Source: Clarias gariepinus
Taxonomy: Eukaryota
DNA length: 64,000 nt
Direction: 5' to 3'
Assembly (NCBI RefSeq): GCF_024256425.1
Contig: NC_071115.1
Location: 12,526,746-12,590,745 of the forward strand
The position numbers and the translations under genes are program-made. How positions within the stretch are numbered: the stretch's first letter is position 1; each line of letters begins with the position of its first letter. Under the pieces are notes generated by a model that made no database searches, was not told where the DNA came from, and saw only the letters and a list, made by a program, of their open reading frames with translations. Shown one piece after another: positions 2,995 through 45,479 of the stretch.

Positions 2995-3135
2995 ACATGC
3001 AGATTAGGTTAATTGGCATTCCCAAGTGCCCGTAGGAGTGAGTGAGTGCATGTGTGTGTGTGTGCCCTGCGATGGATTGGCACCTTGTCCAGGGTGTACC
3101 TCACCTCATGACGCATAATGCTCGCACCCTAATCA
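2995..3135 (+). mobile_element. SINE 3'-half fragment
   Basis: cagattaggttaattggcattcccaa...gtgtgccctgcgatggattggcaccttgtccagggtgtacctcacctc. Confidence 0.65.
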
Positions 3136-3681: not shown

Positions 3682-4169
3682 CTACAGCATTGTGGACGTT
3701 CCACAACATTAAATGTACTTGTAATCCATTCCAGAGTGGACATTTCTTGTCCACTTCAACAGTCGTGTTTTTTTTTTTTTGCCTTTAAGGACGTTCTGTA
3801 GTTGTACTTCAGACTAACAAACCGTTTTAGAATGTTCTCGTACAATTCCGCATTGCGCAACATCCCTGTGTGTCGCTGCACTTAATCGAGGAAAACGCAC
3901 ATGAATCTTTTAACGGGGAACTTTTGCTTTAAAAAGTCGTGTTCTCTTGACGCTCGCGGCGACGTCATGTGACACAAACAAGCGCTTTAATTGGTTCGCC
4001 GAGTTCTGATTCGGTGAGTCCGCTGGGATCTCGGCCAGATCTGATGCTCTTCCCGCTCGCGCGCGCACATACACACGATGATGCAGTGTTTAATGCGACC
4101 GTTACTGAGTTGCTCTAACTCTCGGTACGGGGCACGTGAGCGCCGCGACGCTGTTTCTGTTGCGTTTAC

Positions 4170-4347: not shown

Positions 4348-4469
4348 TTTGGAAGTAGTTTAAGGGTGAAGGCTACACCAGGGCCGCAGAAGCAGTGTGT
4401 ACCCCTGTGTCAGGGAGAAGCTTCACTCACAGAATCACTTCCGGCTGTCAGCAGAATTGATTTGTGGCG

Positions 4470-5462
4470 TAGAGTGTAATTACTAATGCACAAACACCAG
4501 GGGGCGCCATAGGGGGCTGAGCTGATAACAGACACTGACCAGCCATAATATTATGGCCCCGCCCCCTTTGTCACTATAATATTGATGCACTGTGTTCTGA
4601 CACCTTTGTATCACCACCAGCATTAACCTTTCCATCAATTTGATATATACTAGCTCTTATATTGGATCAGAGTACACCAGCCAGCCTGTGCTCCCCATAA
4701 ACATCATTGGGCCTTGGCCAATCGTGACCCTTTCGCCAGTTCGCTGGTTTTCCTTCTTTTAATTACTTTTGTATGTCCTGAACACCCAAGAGATGCAGTT
4801 GTGGAGGTGCTCTGACCCAGTCCTCTAGCCATCACAATTTAGCTCTTGTCAAAGTCACTTAAAACCTAGCCCATTTCTCTTGCTTATTGCTTTCTGCTAA
4901 ATTTATTAGAGAATTATTGTATTATTATATTGTGCTTGCTGCCTAATATATCACACTGACTTCCAGCCACCATTGTAACAAGATATTGAAAATGTAGCAA
5001 GGCCCACATTGTAATGGCTAAGTTGCTCTGACCCAGCTGTCTAGCTATTACAACATGGCTCTTCCTGAAGTTGTTTGATGTGTTGAAAGCAAAAAAATAA
5101 ATAAAATGGGCAAGCATAAGGATTTGAGTGACTTTGACATGGGCCAAATTGTGATAGTTAGAGACCTGGGAAATTGCAGCTATTGTGGGATGTTCCTGGT
5201 CTGCAGTGGTCAGCACATACCAAAAGTAACTGTTCAACTGTTGAACTGGTGACAAGGTCATAGGTGGCCAAAGTTTACTGATGCACATAGGAATCGAAGG
5301 CTGGCCCATGTAGTCCAATCCAATAGAAGAGCTAGTGGAGATTAAATTGATGAAAAGGTTAATTGAAAAGGTTAATGCTGTTGTAAAAAAAAAATAGGGG
5401 GACCTAGTCAATATTAGTTAAGTGGTCATAATGTTATGACTGATTGGTGTATGTACAGTGGA
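4470..5462. mobile_element. Composite of fragmented Tc1/mariner-like transposon pieces (ITR-like segments plus a transposase N-terminal fragment 5103-5400 on plus)
   Basis: Plus-frame translation gives MGKHKDLSDFDMGQIVIVRDLG..., a typical Tc1-like transposase N-terminus. It is disrupted by stops. Two copies of gctctgacccag(t/c)c(g/c)tctagc(c/t)at(c/t)acaa ITR-like sequence are present. The terminal cactgtacatacaccaatcagtcataacattatgacc sits at 5425-5462. Confidence 0.6.
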
Positions 5463-8400
5463 CCCTCGGTAAATTAATTTAATTGGTTCTGGAGGTGAGT
5501 TCTTAAGGCGAAAGTTCATACTGTGAATTGGATTTCCCCATAAGAAATAGTGTAAATGCAGATAATCTGTTCCAGCCACCCATAAATATGACCAATTTCT
5601 AACACTATAATCATATTTTTGCATATAAAACAATTAAACCATTTAGAAAAGATATGAAATGAAGTAAAATATGAAATGGACTTTAAACCTTACTTACCCT
5701 TAATTTCCTGATTCCTCTTGAAATCAACTGCTTTTTAATGAAAATTTCCATCTTAATTTCCATTAAAAAGGCCCCTTTACTTCTTGCTACCGTCCTTACT
5801 ACCTCTTTTGGGACCCATGGAGCTACGTCTTCATTAGTCTTGTACAAAATGCCCCCCAGCCCCCCCACACTCCCCCCCTAAAAGGAAAAAAAACAAAAAA
5901 ATGTAAAGTTTATAAATTTGCTTTGCTTGGCTTTTCACTGGTGCAAACGAGTTTTGAATGACTTGTGGATGTATGTGCAACTTAGCCAGCATTCCATTCG
6001 TTTGTTCGTTCATAATCTGATCCAAAATTGTTGCAAAATTTTAATTCATACAAGTCACTTAGTCTATGCTTACCGATGTCAGGAAAGAAAAAGACTACCT
6101 TTTTTACAGTCATGCACATCTGTTGCTCTCAAGAACATAAATAATTTTAACATGACCTGGTGAAATCTGGGAGAACAAAAAGTTGAAGTTGTGTTGATGT
6201 CCATTTGGAGACAAGCCCAAGGGAGGGCGGGAGAGAGCAACATAGAAAGAGAAAGTGAGAAAGAAAATGTGGGAGAGTTAACATTTTAATATTAAAACCA
6301 AAATAAGTAGAAAAGCATAGGGGAGTTAAAACATTTTATATTATAAAACAGAAGCAAAACATTCTTCCAGGATGGAAGCGATCCTGTGCATGAAGTAATG
6401 TTCATGCAGACATGACTAGTCAAAGTTGCATCAGAGTGGTGCACAGCCCTGACCTCAATCTCACTGATCACCTTAAGGATGAACTGGAATGCTGAGTTGT
6501 ACCAGGTCTCCTCACTTCACATCAATGCCTGATCTCACTTTCTCTAGTGGGCTCTTGCTGGTTCTAAGTGAGCCCAAACAGATCAGGATGACAATTACAA
6601 CATCACGTCTAATCAGTCTGGTTTTGTTTTAGCGGGCTTGGGGAGAATAAGACAGATAAACTTTCAGAGATAAATTGAGGGTTTGGACTGTGAGAGCAGT
6701 TGTCTTATAGCTATTACTGCTGTTCACTTTCACCCAGTCTTCAGTTCCTGTTACTGTCAAACTAGAGGCCTGTAGCTTGCCAAACACTAGGGAAGGGATG
6801 CAACCTCGCCCACTTATATCAAATTCATCGATTGGGTAATTTTATTAAAATGTATAATTAAATCCCCCTAGGTTAATTTATTTGTACTCTCAGACAGCTT
6901 GTTTATCTTCTCTATCCCTCTGTGACATTTTCTAATCAGTGACCTTTTCTGTCTGCTCTCACTCTCTCCATTGTGTAATGGTGAGCATGTCCACAGGAAA
7001 AACTAGTTGTTACAGAACTGCAATGAATGTGCAGGCAGTAACAGGCAGTTAAAGGGAGTTGTTAATCATTATACATGTAATAATTGTAGGGACTAACAGG
7101 CCACCTCAAAGGGAGCCGTGAATCTGTCACCTTCCAGCGAAACCATGCTGACAACGCTATGTTTCTCAATGGTACGAAGCAACTGGAAGTGTGATCCGGT
7201 CAAAGCAGGAAACCTAGATGGCTTTTACCAAGCTTGACCTCAAACAGTACAAATCAGCAAGTGGTTGTACAAGGAAGAGACAGTTTTACAACATTAGCAA
7301 ACTAGGAAAGAAGCAGTTTTACTGCTTTCTTGTGCAACTCCCTTGCACAAGACAGAAGCAGTTACACATCCCCACTCAAACTGCTCTGGGTTACGTAAAT
7401 TGGCAAGCACCTCACTTGAATAAGGAAGAAGACAGTTTCCTAACCCTCCTGGCAGTTGCTGACCACCAGAACGCATTTCCTGCTTCATCTCTTGGCTCAA
7501 GAACCAAGAACATACCTACTTTAGGGACACTTATAATGCCAATCAGTTAAAGTATGCCAGTAGGGCAAATATAAAATTATATGCATGTATTTATATAGGA
7601 TGTTTGGTATCATTGGGTTGTGTTCAACATGTCTATCCTAAACTTAGGAAGTGTAATCAACATGTATAACCCCTCTCTATAGATGACGGTATCAATAAGT
7701 ATACAAGATATGGGATGCTTGGTATTTAATGAAAGCTTGGTTTATTCAAAGAGCATTGATGTGTATTAAAGTTATATGAACCAGACTCGTGGTAATACAC
7801 TCTTAGTTACGAAAACTCCAACGAGATGTCCTCTCACGTGACAGACCAAATGCTAGATTAATGTATGCACGAAAAGTAGTAACCATGCGGGGCTTGGCTC
7901 TACGCACACAATCATCTCTGATTGAACACCTGTGGAACGGACCTGCTCCGTGGGGTCAAAAACCCCACGTCTGAAATCCTACATCGTCTGAAGTAAGGAA
8001 GCAAGCCCGTCCTGCTTCGGCCCCTGCGGCCGCTCCGCCGCCCTTGTGGGCATTCTATTTGGGACTTTGTATTTTCGCCCTTTGCATCAATGTATATAAA
8101 ATTATATGTATCAATAAGCAACCGGGGCATGCGCTCTTCAAGAACTCTCAACAAGACCTTGTGCCAGAACTCTAAAGTCCTGCAACGAAGAAAACCTTAG
8201 AAGAATTTCCAGAGCTCCACCATTGGTAACCAGGCAACCAACCCCTCACCAAAGGGCTTCCCCGAAAGACGTCATCTCAATAACAACGCACCAACAAATC
8301 AGCAATGGTGTGATTCCCTTCGCTGGAGGAGAACCAACGGATGAGAACGAAACGTATCTCGAGTAAACAAACAAAGCTTTATAAACCGTGAGATTAAACC

Positions 8401-26659: not shown

Positions 26660-27482
26660 CTGAACAAGTGCAGAGAAAATGAACAGTAATTCAAAAACAA
26701 TATTTTAGACAATACGTGCAGTTTTATAAATCCATCACTGTCATGACAATATAGAGACAAAATCAATTTGGCAAGCGTGATGGTTTTGAAAACAGTTTAG
26801 TTTTACAAAATTATTTTCTACATTCGAGAACAATACTGGACTTTTTCGATACTATAAAATAACACAAGGCATTAGGGAATTAATTAACAACAACAAGAGT
26901 AAGTTGTTATTTAAAAGGCAGAAAAGTCAGCTATTCTGGAACGGTTCTTGCAAGATGATGAAACTGGCTCTCATGAACCCCGTCCCAGGAAGACCAGACC
27001 AAAACTTACTTCTGCTGCACAGAAAAAGTTCATCGAGTGTTTCCTGCATCACAAGTCACCAATTAACAAACAACACCTCAGATTAGAACCGTTATCAATG
27101 CTTTACAGAGCTTACAGTAGGTAGAGAACACATCTCAATATCAGCTGTTTAAAAGAGATTATTGCATATTGTAAATGCCTTCAGTATTCTTTTATAGGAA
27201 TTAGAAGGTTTGACTGGTAGTGTTAGTTACAGTAATTATTACTGCAGGACAAGTGATGACTGTATAATGAGGACTCGCAGAGCTTCTTGGCAACACATTC
27301 ATTTTTGACTCCCTATAGGGCTTGTACTTGTTATTCTGGCTGTAATCTGTCTGCACGTCCTCTTATTAGACTCTTAGGACCCAAGAGTCCTGCTGTCATG
27401 CATTGCTTTTTACCCCACACTTGGATAAGTAGCATATTTTGTAATGCGTGATATTTTTTATACACAGATACATCCCGGGAAC

Positions 27483-27483
<1 letters not shown>

Positions 27484-27520
<37 letters not shown>
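27484..27520. repeat. Compound (GA)n(GACA)7 microsatellite 11 nt inside the mvp intron after the exon 11 donor
   Basis: gagagagagagagagacagacagacagacagacagacagaca. Confidence 0.95.
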
Positions 27521-27532
27521 TGCGCGCTTTAC

Positions 27533-27730
27533 CAGTTGTAGGCGAGCTGGAGCTGCAGACGGGCATGATCAGCGGTTTCTATGGTGATGATGTCAGTGCA
27601 GAAATCAGGGCCGAGGAGCAGGCAGATGGCTTTAATGACGTTGGCTCGCTTGGGTTTCTCTCCAGATAGAGAGAGTACTGTGAACTGCTCATCAGGGCCT
27701 AGCATCACCATATCAGGTCCAAACACCACC
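27533..27730 (-). CDS. mvp: mvp exon 11
   Basis: Reads (R)[65 protein letters not shown](W). Acceptor ctctcag|G, donor AACTG|GTAAAG. Matches human [66 protein letters not shown]. Confidence 0.9.
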
Positions 27731-28562
27731 CTGAGAGAGAAGGCACAAGATTCTTAAAAACAGCTTTAATGCAAATATTGCCATCGAAGAGAGGAAAAGG
27801 TAGTGGTTGAAATTTAGTTCAAAAATAATTTGAATATTTAGTGACCAAGTGGATTAATAAATTTATTGATCTTGAGTAGGTGCTTTATCTATCCTGGGAA
27901 CACTGGGTGCAAGGTGGGAATGAGATGCTGTGGCAGTTCAATACAGCAGACCATGCACACACTACGCATGTCATAGAATAATGGATACATAACATTTTTA
28001 ATAATGTGTTCTTCTTAAACATTAGATAAGCAAACATTAATAAAAAAAAACCTTCCTGAATAACAGGCAAGTACAGATTCCAAAATGTCCTGTTAGTTTT
28101 TTTTTCTTGTTTATAGCGCCACACAGTCACCATTCACTTTATTAGAAACACCTGTACACATGCACATTCATGCAGTTATCTAATGAGCAAATCATATATA
28201 ATTATATAAAGCAAATTATGTGGCAGAAGAGCAACACAAACCATCATGCATATACAGTAAACATGCAAGTGCTTGTGTGATCTCTGTGATCTTGACATAG
28301 AATGGTCAAATGGGGTAAAAAAGCCGTGTTGATGAGAGAGGGGAAGTCTGTAGAAATTCACAAGCATGCTGAGCGGTAATGCGTCTCAGAACACACAACA
28401 AAGCCAACCTTGAGGTGGATGGGCTACAACAGAAGGTCACATTCAACAACGCATTTCCGTCCACAGAGCTGTTGCTCGCTCAAAGTTTGGTGCAACTTGA
28501 GATTGGCGAGGAGTTTTAGAAATACCTTAACCTGATATTCTTATACAATTACCCATACCATA

Positions 28563-29282
28563 ATAAAATTCACAGAGCCCACACTAAAGCCCAATCCCAA
28601 ATCTACCCCTTACCCCTACCCCTCTGTTTGACGCGTTAACGTGAAGGGGTAGGGGTGTCTCATTTCTCTTTTGGTTGGAGGGGTAGGGGTAAGGGGAAGG
28701 GCCTGATAGCCCTCCAAACGAAGATTTTTCGGGACCTCACTTCAAACGAAGGGCTAACGAAATTTTCAAGATGGCCGCTCACTCGAGCTAGCAGACCCAT
28801 AAATTTAACGAATTTTTGCCATTAATAAGGATTTTTATGACAAGTTTTTATTATATGTATATTAATTTTAGTCTTGTGTTTATGGTGATGTTTTGTAAAA
28901 AAACGTTTGCAAAAAAAACGCTAAAGTTTGCTAGCGGATAGCGCCGATTGCGCAATATTACAAAAATATATTTTTATGTCATATACACTTTACTGCATGC
29001 TACAAACAAATATAAAAGTTCAGTAGCACGGCAGTTTGCCGAGCTTTTGATAACGCATTGTTTGTTTTGCTTACGGCCATACTGTATGTGTACATGTAAA
29101 TGAACGGATACGTATGATGACGTATAACAGTGTTGTAGTGGTGTCCCATTTCTTAGGGGAAATATTTTAACCCTTCCCCTTTCCACTTCGTTTCAAGGGA
29201 CAAGGGGAAGGGGCGAGGGGTAGGGGAAGGGGTAGAAAATAGAATTGGGATTGGGCTTTAGTGTTCATTCTGAATTTTATGC
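28563..29282. mobile_element. MITE-like element with long (about 100-190 bp) G-tract-rich terminal inverted repeats, in mvp intron 10
   Basis: Left end ataaaattcacagagcccacactaaagcccaatcccaaatctaccccttacccctacccc... Right end ...ggggtaggggaaggggtagaaaatagaattgggattgggctttagtgttcattctgaattttat. The ends are reverse complements. Subterminal ccaaacgaag / cttcgtttcaagg are also inverted. Confidence 0.6.
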
Positions 29283-29407
29283 GGATATTAAGTGTGGGAA
29301 TTCTTTTGCATGTGATTAACTGCAATGAGCAGAAGCACAGGTGTTCCTAATGAAGTGGACGGTGACGATACATGTTGCTCTTACTGTGGAAACACATCTT
29401 TTGTTAC

Positions 29408-29643
29408 CTGGCTTTCTTCTCTCTGTAGTCATACACCTGCACTGCAGCATTATGGGGCACACGGTAGGACACCACCCTGGTTTTGTCCCTGTCTTCAGCA
29501 GCGGCCTGTTGGCTACGGTCAGAGCGGCCGGCTAGAGGGTCACGCATACTGCTCAGCAGCTTCTCCACATTAGCAGGGAGTTCCTTTTCCCACAACTCCT
29601 CGTCGTGCGTCAGCATGTATGTGCGGCCAATCACAGCGCGTAC
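29408..29643 (-). CDS. mvp: mvp exon 10
   Basis: Reads [78 protein letters not shown](R). Acceptor ctgggcag|GTA, donor GCCAG|GTAACA. Matches human [23 protein letters not shown]...[25 protein letters not shown]. Confidence 0.9.
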
Positions 29644-30201
29644 CTGCCCAGAGCAACGAGGAGTACAAGAGACAAATATTTACATAAAGCTTTACATAGC
29701 TTCAGGTCTGTTTGCATGTTTTTCTAGCAGAACTCAGCGTGGCGGAGGGTGCAGTCACTTGCTAGTGCAATACTATAGGCAAGCTGATCAAGTAACACCT
29801 GTTATTATGCAGGCTTCCACTGCATTAAGAATTTACAGCTGGAGGTCCACCTGCTTTGTTACTTAATATACAGTAACTCCTTATTGAAGACTCAGCCTTT
29901 TGGGACATTAAATATGAGTTACGATTGTTTAAAGCTTGCTGTTGCTTCATTTATTCATGAGAGACTATAGACACGATCGTGACCTTCCATCCTCTGTAGA
30001 ATGGGATTATATGTTTTAGAAATGCAGGGTGGATCTGACTTTTCTCTGGACATTTCACAAGCCAGATTTCATAAGCCGTCTGTGGGTGTGGACTCGTGAT
30101 CCTACAACAGAAGCATTTCAAGGTCTAAGACTCCTACGCACATTCTCTCCTCCTTGTATGAATTGTGTTTATGAAGAGTATTAAACAAAAAAACTATTGA
30201 C

Positions 30202-40610: not shown

Positions 40611-40870
40611 TTTCAGTACAACAGGTTTAAGAATAATGTATGTGTATATCGCATAATATATATGTGCTATTTCCCTCTCTCTCTTTCACTCTCTCTCTCT
40701 TTTTATATATGTGCTATTTCTGTAGGGCTGCGTTATATATATGCGGCTAAATCCGTACATCCATCTGGCAGTGTAGGAAAAGGGGAGGGGGGAGGGGGCG
40801 GGGGTCTGTGGGAAATCCCGGCAGTAACGTCACTTCCCGCGCAATGAGCAAAAAAAAAAAAAAATTTTGG
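40600..40870 (-). promoter_or_regulatory. mvp: mvp proximal promoter: GC boxes, palindromic NF-kB-like GGGAAATCCC (40810-40819), CRE half-site/ETS, TATA-like CATATATAAAAAG, (CT)n
   Basis: On the minus strand these read GGGAAGTGACGT, GGGATTTCCC and CCCGCCCCCTCCCC upstream of the ATATATAAAAAG and (GA)n stretch. A CTTCCGGAAG palindrome sits at the putative TSS, 40585-40600. Confidence 0.45.
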
Positions 40871-42935: not shown

Positions 42936-43477
42936 ATTTTTTTGCTTTACTAAAATACTAACAATATGCAAACATCATACACAAAAGCTGCATACAGTCC
43001 TGTGCAAAAGTAAGTGCCCCCTCTTTTCATTCTATGATTTTTTTAAATGTAAAAACATACTGTAATAAAATCATATTATAGCAGCAGGTCTTAGTATTAC
43101 GGTAGGCAAATACAATCAGATGTTTTATAACCTTTTCCAGATTGATGTAAAGGAACAATTGCTTTGTTAAGCCCATTGCTCAGGTCTTTTCCTCTTGGCA
43201 TTGCGTTAACACACAACTGAATGCTCCAGGCCAGCCAGCTTTTATAGAGTACTACACACCTGCTGATAATTAATTAATGATGATTAGCAGCACCCACCTG
43301 GCTGCAACTTACCCTCTTAAATCCTGTGGAAGCAGTAAGAGGGTACTATTATATTTGACTTTATTTATGTGAAAATAAATAATGGCGCTATGAAAAAAGT
43401 TATATGCTGTTGTTCGTTTGAGGTTGTGTTTATTGAATACTAAGACCTGTTACAATCAGATAATTATTATTATTATA

Positions 43478-43483
<6 letters not shown>

Positions 43484-43510
<27 letters not shown>
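43484..43510. repeat. (CA)13 microsatellite
   Basis: acacacacac... Confidence 0.95.
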
Positions 43511-45479
43511 CCCTATAGAATAAATAAAAAGAGGGGGCACTATTTTTTTTACACACGACAGTATATAGAGAATACCAGAAAAATGACTAATTTTAAAAGC
43601 AGAGAGAGTGAGAGCAAAGACAAAAATATGAGAAAAAAAATGAATAACTATGTAACCTCTGTGTAACTATTTTTCTACACCAGATGGCAGTGTGTACATT
43701 TAGTTAAATCTGAATGAATGGCTGCTTAGGAGTTCTGATGGAAACAATGACATCAAATAAGTAGAACAGGGTTTTTTTCCCCCTCAGCTCAAATCATCTT
43801 TCAGTGGCCTCCTTGATGGTTTTGATCTCTCAGATCAAACATGCAGAGAGGAGCTGAATTAATTTAATTTTCAGAAAAGACCTTATTCAATTATGTTAGA
43901 AGAAGAAAGAAGGTTTTATTGGTCATATACACATGATATAGCAGACAGGATTAAGGGGTAAAGGGTCCCCCCCCCCAAAGTCGCAACTTGGTAGTGCTAC
44001 CTCTTGAACCCTTGCCCTTCTGCTCGGTAGACTAGAGTTTTAACCACCACTGCCAGTTATATTATATTTAAGCAATATCACATGAGAGGGAGTGATGTTG
44101 TGCTGATTATCGAGTTCCATAAAAATTCATTATTATGAACAGGTTATGAATTGTTTGTTTATTTATCCAGTTATTATTATATACAGAGAAGAAAGTAGTT
44201 TTGAATTCTCTCTGGTACTATGTAACCAAACCATGAAGGTGGTGGATGGAGTGGTAAATTTGGTAAAAAATGGTAAGTTTTTTTTTTTTATATATATATA
44301 TTTCCAGTTATTCTGCTTTAGAATATCAGCTATGGTAATTTACAGGTTTTTTGGGTTAAATCATCAAGACATGTTAAATGGAAATCTAGTGCACTTGTTC
44401 TTCATGTCAATTAGGGCCCTTGATTACCAAATAGAGAGAGATTTGGGATTCTGCCTTGTGGTAGAAGCTAGTTAGAGCTAGTTGTAGTTTCCTTAGTTGT
44501 AAATACAACACAGCTGATTATGAGACAACTTTGGAATGACTTAAAAGCAATTATTAAGTAATCAAAGTGTTGCTTAAGGTGACAATGGGATCAAAAGTGT
44601 TTTCTTGCTGAAATTTGCTTCCCAGACCGGTTGTAAATGTGAGTTTTGGCAGGCAGTGGCTCTCTCCTCAGTATTGCAGACCATACAGACCTACTTTCAC
44701 CTACAGAGACAGACGTCTATTATAATTAAAAAGTTTTTAGAACACGTTGAGTGATACATGTTGTTAAATGTGCCAGTGCTGTTACTGGCTATTAGCAAAC
44801 TCGTGGAGTGCCTCTCGTTCAATTAGATTGCTCAGTCGGAACTAACTTTTGTATAATATGTATCATCCAGTAAGTGTGTAGTCAGCTGTAACATTATCAG
44901 TTGCTCAATAACTAGCTCCACTCACATGCTTATTAGCATTCTCCGGCTGCCGCCTTAAAACAGCAACTGATTCCTCTCAGGAATCTGAGGCTACAGTAAG
45001 CATTGATTTATCTCCTGGTCCTTTTCCAGTCTTTAGCTGTTCAATTCCTGTAAGCCAATGTCTGGTCTAGCTTCAGATTCCTGCTCTTGCCTGACTATAC
45101 TGTAGTGTCATCTGACACGGTTCTCTGCCCTTCTCTGAGAATCTGCCTTGAGGTTTGATGTACAGGACATTCTGCAATACCAAAGTAGAAAAGGATGGCT
45201 TTATGAGTTCCCATAATCCTTCTGTCAGGAAGATCCAGAAAAATCCTGTCCATTCTCCTTTAACCGCTTAACAAGACATTTCTGCCTGCAAAACTGCCAC
45301 TCACTGGATGTTTTGACATCATTCTGTGTAAACTCTAGAAACTGTGGTGTAAAAATCCAAGCTGTTTCTGGGGAATAAAAATTCACATGTACAACATAAT
45401 ACAAATGAAATCTTTAGATTTTTTAAATATTTAAATAAACAAGTTTTTGGGAATAAATAAATATAGTATTTCTCACTTA

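Follow-up and report, generated by a model that had tools for sequence, protein, structure and literature searches.

The closest described relatives of the element considered here are small transposons of the PIF/Harbinger type, in particular maize mPIF, rice mPing and zebrafish Harbinger3_DR. The terminal inverted repeats (TIRs) of mPing/Pong start with GGCC, and the consensus target of PIF is CWCTTAGWG. Sinzelle et al. are said to have found in 2008 that Harbinger3_DR requires a Myb-like partner which binds to subterminal sites. In Tourist-like MITEs the duplication is 3 bp long (TTA/TAA), and the target preference of PIF and mPIF extends over 9 bp (PMC6327408); Harbinger3_DR integrates at a palindromic 15-bp consensus (PMC3016246). 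Stowaway-like (Tc1/mariner) MITEs, e.g. Angel of zebrafish, are also small, hairpin-forming, intronic and abundant in fish, but have a TA duplication and other TIRs.

The window, i.e., the whole stretch of 64,000 nucleotides (64 kb) that was analysed, is from the catfish Clarias gariepinus and has the mvp gene on its minus strand, as the open reading frame (ORF) fragments correspond to exons of the major vault protein (MVP). Together, 16 coding exons located between 37.6 and 23.6 kb give a protein with 100% identity to C. gariepinus MVP (XP_053370824.1). One intron of this gene holds a 670-bp, non-autonomous element which is very probably a PIF/Harbinger (Tourist-like) MITE, inserted at the TAA of CAC-TAA-GTG and nested in the remnant of a Tc1-like transposon. 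The intron is:

27731-29407, minus strand: mvp intron of 1677 nt between coding exons 9 and 10 (GT at 29407-29406, AG at 27732-27731)

An initial annotation of this DNA had placed the element between exons 10 and 11, which is the same intron (coding exons 9 and 10) if a non-coding exon 1 is present. The right end of the element is 150 nt from the mvp 5′ splice site. In C. magur, Silurus meridionalis and Pangasianodon hypophthalmus, the orthologous intron has, judging from alignment coordinates, a length of about 0.5-0.6 kb. A protein-to-contig look-up gave no contigs on record that encode the MVP of C. gariepinus or of Hemibagrus. The gene at 10001-57820 of the C. magur locus (QNUK01000068.1, here L008) is annotated as encoding a protein of 1443 aa (KAF5903758.1) with pentraxin, dynein light chain and MVP domains; this triple-domain model looks like a gene-fusion artefact of annotation. 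In the next intron of the window there is a dinucleotide microsatellite (27483-27518), which matches many microsatellite runs in other catfish loci.

The limits of the element are given by an allele in which it is absent. The 76-aa ORF of the upstream exon, searched by exact look-up, led to Logan contig L011 (SRR30889352_174503, 1716 bp), which has 97.0% identity to window 30534-29260 and 98.4% identity to window 28587-28155, the two blocks being joined directly. The empty site in L011 reads ...CACAGAGCCCACAC TAA GTGTTCATTCTGAATTTTATGCGG... (core CACAC-TAA-GTGTT), and the filled site in the window reads ...CACAC TAA AGCCCAATCCC ... GGGATTGGGCT TTA GTGTT..., the element itself being AGCCC...GGGCT. 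The junction in L011 is recreated by deleting 28588-29260 from the window. The k-mers of this junction are absent from the filled allele and, thus, L011 did not arise by collapse of the inverted repeat. As L011 joins 29260 directly to 28587, the insertion comprises 28588-29257, with TAA and TTA as flanking triplets. The resulting features are as follows (none has a strand assigned):

28588-29257: mobile element of 670 bp, a non-coding, probable Tourist-like (PIF/Harbinger-type) MITE, identified from the empty allele L011 and related copies
28585-28587: left target-site triplet TAA, as in the empty site of L011 and on both sides of the related copies L013 and L015
29258-29260: right target-site triplet TTA, with one mismatch to TAA (the middle base)
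28563-28584: left flank, target DNA outside the element, which mirrors 29261-29282 (ATAAAATTCA ... ACAC) and is present in L011
29261-29282: right flank, target DNA outside the element (GTGT ... TGAATTTTAT), mirroring the left flank and likewise present in L011

Both flanks are also found in C. magur, diverged and of equal length. The boundaries first proposed for the element (28563-29282) are, therefore, 25 bp too far out on each side, since the empty allele identifies 28563-28587 and 29258-29282 as target DNA. L011 itself ends at window 28155, inside the terminal repeat 28126-28168 of the Tc1-like remnant, which is expected if its assembly broke at a repeat.

The initial annotation gave the termini more than 100 bp of reverse complementarity. 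They do match in inverted orientation (28563-28624 against 29215-29280; 69 columns, 78% identity, blastn E 4e-9), but the match is only 62-66 nt long, of which 37 and 43 nt belong to the element:

28588-28624, plus strand: left TIR of 37 nt, AGCCCAATCCCAAATCT followed by three units of ACCCCT[T]
29215-29257, minus strand: right TIR of 43 nt, conserved in the related copies L012, L013 and L015

A gapped alignment of the left TIR with the reverse complement of 29215-29257 has 36 matches, 0 mismatches and 3 indels; the TIR consensus of the family is GGCCCAATCCC. The remainder of the match lies in the target: the outer 25 bp on each side were quasi-palindromic before the insertion. Outside the 9-bp target core there is a perfect 10-nt inverted pair, ATAAAATTCA and TGAATTTTAT (28563-28572 and 29271-29280), of which 8/10 positions match in the empty allele. 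An inverted match of 10 nt between 25-nt flanks is found at 0.26% of random window positions (p about 0.003). The additional apparent TIR length is presumably the product of a preference of this family for palindromic targets.

Evidence that the element belongs to a family came from its translated left arm (window 28640-28822, 61 aa), which was used as a HMMER query against 1.84 billion representatives. There were five specific matches (E 1.6e-12 to 1.2e-5), all of them unnamed ORF calls on the assemblies GCA_977065575.1 and GCA_977066275.1; a sixth match, to a repetitive bacterial calcium-binding protein, was rejected as unrelated. The five related copies in these two assemblies comprise three complete copies (L012 3052-3727, L013 3066-3871 and L015 10027-10909) and two partial copies (L014 and L016). 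Their ends, with flanking triplets, include:

L013: AAAG TAA GGCCCAATC ... GGGATTCGGCC TAA GTCA (short form of the right end, GGATTCGGCC)
L015: ACACTC TAA GGCCCAATCCC ... GGAATTGGGCC TAA GACA (short form of the right end, AATTGGGCC)
L012: TTAA TGA GGCCCAATCCC ... GGGATTCGGCC TCA GTGTG
L014, left end only: CTT TAA GCACAATCCC ...

In blastn alignments of the Clarias copy with L012, the left end has 88% identity (174 nt) and the right end 80% (162 nt); identity to the remaining copies is 71-86%. When the four complete copies are aligned (A2), conservation is high over about 120-170 nt at either end, and highest in columns 60-190, whereas the interior is variable and rich in indels; the Clarias interior aligns with the others weakly and in patches. 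Beyond the GGCC... ends the copies have no sequence in common, their flanks are unrelated, and the MITE is the only repeat that the loci with the other copies have in common with the catfish loci. Neither the 64-kb window nor the mvp loci of other catfishes (C. magur, Silurus, Pangasianodon; 139 kb) contained a second copy. According to the initial annotation, single-copy status in the genome would make a structural palindrome more likely than a mobile element; for the family, this point is answered by the five related copies in two other assemblies. An exact metagenome scan with the 19-mer CACTAAAGCCCAATCCCAA gave 7 contigs with matches of just 19-24 nt, i.e., chance matches. Within the element, the longest internal ORF (70 aa) had no relative in the protein collection by word-indexed search, none of the 10 ORFs was in that collection by exact look-up, and no ORF had a Pfam domain. 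The Rfam matches were hairpin-like and sub-threshold, the best being 30.8 bits compared with a gathering score of 77.

With its 670 bp, its TIRs of 37 and 43 nt and the lack of Pfam domains, the element is short, non-coding and bounded by inverted repeats, and its presence and absence are separated by a clean boundary, both in L011 and in the equal-length empty site of C. magur. Its first description as a MITE-like insertion is supported by the empty allele, by the absence of the element in three catfishes, and by related copies with TIRs and TAA duplications. The TAA/TTA duplication, the GGCC TIRs, the small size without Pfam domains and the palindromic target indicate, as features of sequence, that the probable superfamily is PIF/Harbinger. 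The target-site duplication, which the initial annotation had left to be defined from further copies, can be read from the single TAA of the empty site and from the perfect TAA on both sides of L013 and L015. It is a 3-bp TWA duplication as in PIF/Harbinger elements, with one mismatch each in the window (TAA/TTA) and in L012 (TGA/TCA); that two of the four complete copies (window and L012) lack a perfect direct duplication counts against this assignment. An extended palindromic target is seen at four sites: CAC-TAA-GTG in the window, ACACTC-TAA on the left of L015, TCA-GTGTG on the right of L012, and AAG-TAA-GTC in L013. Read on the opposite strand, the empty site (CACTTAGTG) agrees at 9/9 positions with CWCTTAGWG, which we take to be the PIF consensus.

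Other classes of transposon were considered and rejected. A TA duplication (Stowaway-like) does not fit, as three nucleotides (TAA) remain at the empty site and TAA also flanks the other copies; an 8-bp duplication (hAT) does not fit, as the 8-mers at either candidate boundary are not direct repeats. For a CACTA/EnSpm element with the termini CACTA...TAGTG (28582-29263), the flanking triplets mismatch and the empty site contradicts the ends. Duplications of TA, AT, AATT or 8 bp at the boundaries first proposed are likewise ruled out by the empty site.

The likeness to maize mPIF and rice mPing is in being small and non-coding, in the TAA/TTA triplet, in insertion into the middle of a short palindrome, in conserved ends with a variable interior and, for the consensus of the family, in TIRs that start with GGCC. 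The differences are the catfish host, TIRs that are unrelated past the first bases, and subterminal repeats that are rich in G4 motifs. The TIRs are also longer (37-43 nt compared with 14-15 nt in mPIF and mPing), because they run into tandem ACCCCT units, and the window copy starts with AGCC rather than GGCC. With Harbinger3_DR the element shares a teleost host, PIF/Harbinger type, the 3-bp length of the duplication and a marked preference for a long palindrome (AAACACCWGGTCTTT; PMC3016246); compared by description only, it differs in the triplet (TAA rather than CWG), the target core and the TIRs.

The DNA into which the element was inserted is itself a transposon remnant, preserved in two parts:

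28126-28540, plus strand: 5′ part of a degraded Tc1-like transposon, about 80% identical to 4379-4690 of the Pangasianodon locus (L010)
29283-29366, plus strand: 3′ part and end of the Tc1-like remnant, 90% identical to C. magur L008 52968-52908

The ends of this remnant are inverted (28126-28168 against 29324-29366), it is internally deleted, and the MITE is nested inside it. Its right part is also present in C. magur, and the introns of Silurus and Pangasianodon lack the remnant. In C. magur, a (CA)n run (L008 53140-53105) inside the orthologous intron occupies the position of Tc1-like sequence in C. gariepinus. A further, older Tc1-like copy lies upstream of mvp (window 42940-45370, minus strand; L008 37387-38945; Silurus L009 5987-7077; L010 4340-5400). 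It is orthologous in all four catfishes and, thus, predates their divergence; the Pangasianodon copy has an internal inverted duplication (4723-4745/4800-4822).

Comparison with the other catfishes also bears on the age of the insertion. The C. magur locus has about 79% identity to two blocks of the window, 27058-27954 and 29313-30148, and the gap between them is 176 bp in C. magur vs 1358 bp in the window. The diverged site in C. magur has the same length (ACACCAAAGCTTCATT vs ACACTAAGTGTTCATT), and blastn found no sequence of the element in the loci of Silurus meridionalis (L009) or Pangasianodon hypophthalmus (L010). Given the equal-length empty site in C. magur, the empty state is, most simply, ancestral. 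The idea that C. magur retains the outer 21 nt of the left TIR, from an ancestral element that was then deleted, was discarded, as L011 shows these bases to be flank. Between the filled and the empty allele, flanking sequence differs by 1.6-3%, and the k-mer heterozygosity reported for C. gariepinus is 1.56% (PMC11458897), so L011 could be a conspecific haplotype. If so, the insertion would be polymorphic; L011 could also come from a close relative. As an allele with a difference of just 1.6-3% lacks the element, the insertion is, by this sequence measure, young.

An unlikely alternative is that the element was ancestral in Clarias and was later lost, both from the lineage of L011 and from C. 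magur, by precise excision or by a hairpin-mediated deletion. Excision of PIF/Harbinger-type elements can be precise, the breakpoints of L011 are symmetrical within the palindrome, as they would be in a deletion across the stem of a hairpin, and the C. magur site (ACACCAAAGC) is similar to the start of the filled junction (ACACTAAAGC). However, this history calls for two independent losses after which the remaining sites have exactly the same length, and Silurus and Pangasianodon lack the element as well. Furthermore, the outer 25-bp flanks contain no conserved sequence of the family; thus, the empty alleles retain no remnant of an element.

The non-autonomous element would have been mobilised in trans, by a PIF/Harbinger DDE transposase and a Myb-like partner encoded elsewhere, with about 120-170 nt at each end acting in cis. 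Transposition proteins usually bind to subterminal repeats that occur in both direct and inverted orientation, and the AGGGG repeats of this family are putative binding sites of the transposase or of its Myb-like partner.

The flanking triplets of the window copy (28585-28587 and 29258-29260) and of L012 (TGA at 3049-3051, TCA at 3728-3730) are reverse complementary to each other, whereas those of L013 and L015 are direct TAA repeats. With n=4 copies, the complementary triplets may be due to chance mutation. They would also fit an intermediate with donor-derived overhangs in which the central base was mis-repaired. This is part of a reading, to which little weight is given, that the family differs mechanistically from textbook PIF/Harbinger elements, in its complementary triplets, in a targeting of cruciform-prone DNA, and possibly in horizontal transfer. 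The hint of such targeting is that the window insertion lies at the centre of a palindrome far exceeding the 9-bp core, and the 88% identity of the subterminal region of about 130 nt between Clarias and a genome without any other common repeat could reflect horizontal transfer.

There are 15 tracts of G4+/C4+ in the 670 bp of the element, compared with 1.9 expected from the density in the window. The pentamer AGGGG occurs 15 times, usually as AGGGGTA or AGGGGAA, 11 times on the plus strand and 4 times on the minus strand, and always within about 120 nt of a terminus. Canonical G4 motifs, defined as four or more G3+ tracts with loops of N1-7, were identified by a regular-expression scan for motifs in the 64-kb window. 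The subterminal features are:

28680-28701, plus strand: G4 motif GGGGTAGGGGTAAGGGGAAGGG, on the mvp template strand; this is the run quoted in the initial annotation
29197-29232, plus strand: G4 motif with six G-tracts, on the mvp template strand
28590-28622, minus strand: G4 motif on the mvp sense strand, the sole one expected in the pre-mRNA
28603-28699, strand not assigned: left-arm subterminal hairpin, in which the C-run 28603-28624 pairs with the G-run 28678-28699 (22 nt, 95%)
29162-29240, strand not assigned: right-arm subterminal hairpin, in which the C-run 29162-29188 pairs with the G-runs 29195-29240
28715-28751, plus strand: second subterminal motif CAAACGAAG, present twice (28715-28723 and 28743-28751) and conserved across copies
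29186-29196, right arm: CTTCGTTTCAA, an inverted relative of CAAACGAAG

The internal palindromes that had been noticed in each arm are located at 28603-28624/28678-28699 in the left arm and at 29171-29188/29195-29212 and 29162-29180/29222-29240 in the right arm. In DNA folding, the left arm (28588-28712) has -26 kcal/mol (z = -2.8), the right arm (29145-29257) has -19.3 kcal/mol (z = -3.2), and the 720-nt strand has -125.8 kcal/mol (z = -8.7 vs shuffles). Three of the five canonical G4 motifs of the window are inside the element, in agreement with the earlier suggestion that its arms are prone to G4; the two outside it are at 5852-5878 (minus strand) and 40782-40812 (plus strand). As mvp is on the minus strand, two of these three motifs are on the template strand and only 28590-28622 would be in the pre-mRNA. 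For the G4 structures claimed on the template or the pre-mRNA there are motifs (two and one, respectively), but the G-runs are not exposed G4 arms: they are subterminal repeat units, all with a complementary C-run at a distance of 40-60 nt, and duplex or hairpin formation competes with G4. The G4 motifs and arm hairpins would be by-products of subterminal repeats in direct and inverted orientation, i.e., tandem AGGGG units would give G4 motifs, and units in opposite orientation would give arm hairpins.

That the hairpin and G4 arms have been co-opted for regulation of mvp, as a pause site, a modulator of splicing or a precursor of small RNAs, is very improbable. The three G4 motifs, the strong predicted folding, the 150 nt to the 5′ splice site and the weak scores (30.8 bits) of miRNA-precursor-like Rfam models speak for it, but those scores are far below the gathering thresholds, the C-runs next to the G-runs favour duplex over G4, and the element, being absent from an allele of 97-98% identity and from all other catfishes examined, is not needed for mvp function. 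None of the results supports the suggested hindrance of transcription or replication, or the suggested small RNAs. MVP, as annotated, is an intact protein, and the element is most likely, from the sequences compared, a neutral intronic passenger.

Still less credible is a Stowaway-like (Tc1/mariner) MITE at 28566-29277, near the boundaries first proposed, with a TA duplication and TIRs of 60 nt. There is a TA at 28564-28565 and at 29278-29279, just outside the common ATAAAATTCA/TGAATTTTAT, and the element does sit in a Tc1-like remnant; nevertheless, the empty allele, which retains 28563-28587 and 29261-29282, refutes this reading, and the other copies end at GGCC... with nothing in common beyond and are flanked by TAA, not TA. 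A locus-specific structural palindrome that was never mobile, e.g. an inverted duplication, might account for the lack of a second copy in the window and for flanks that are palindromic beyond chance (10/10 nt, p about 0.003), but has next to no probability in view of the five related copies at unrelated loci, with their own TIRs and TAA flanks, and of the clean boundary in L011.

The biological importance of the element is small: it is an ordinary transposon of known type, one more intronic MITE in a repeat-rich fish genome (about 44% repeats in C. gariepinus; PMC11458897). The case shows how a preference for palindromic targets can inflate the apparent length of TIRs and shift the boundaries of a MITE when a single sequence is read, and that subterminal repeats of a transposon can be all there is to a cluster of G4 motifs in a fish intron. 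The insertion may be usable as a presence/absence marker, and its youth suggests that a PIF/Harbinger source has recently been active in this lineage.
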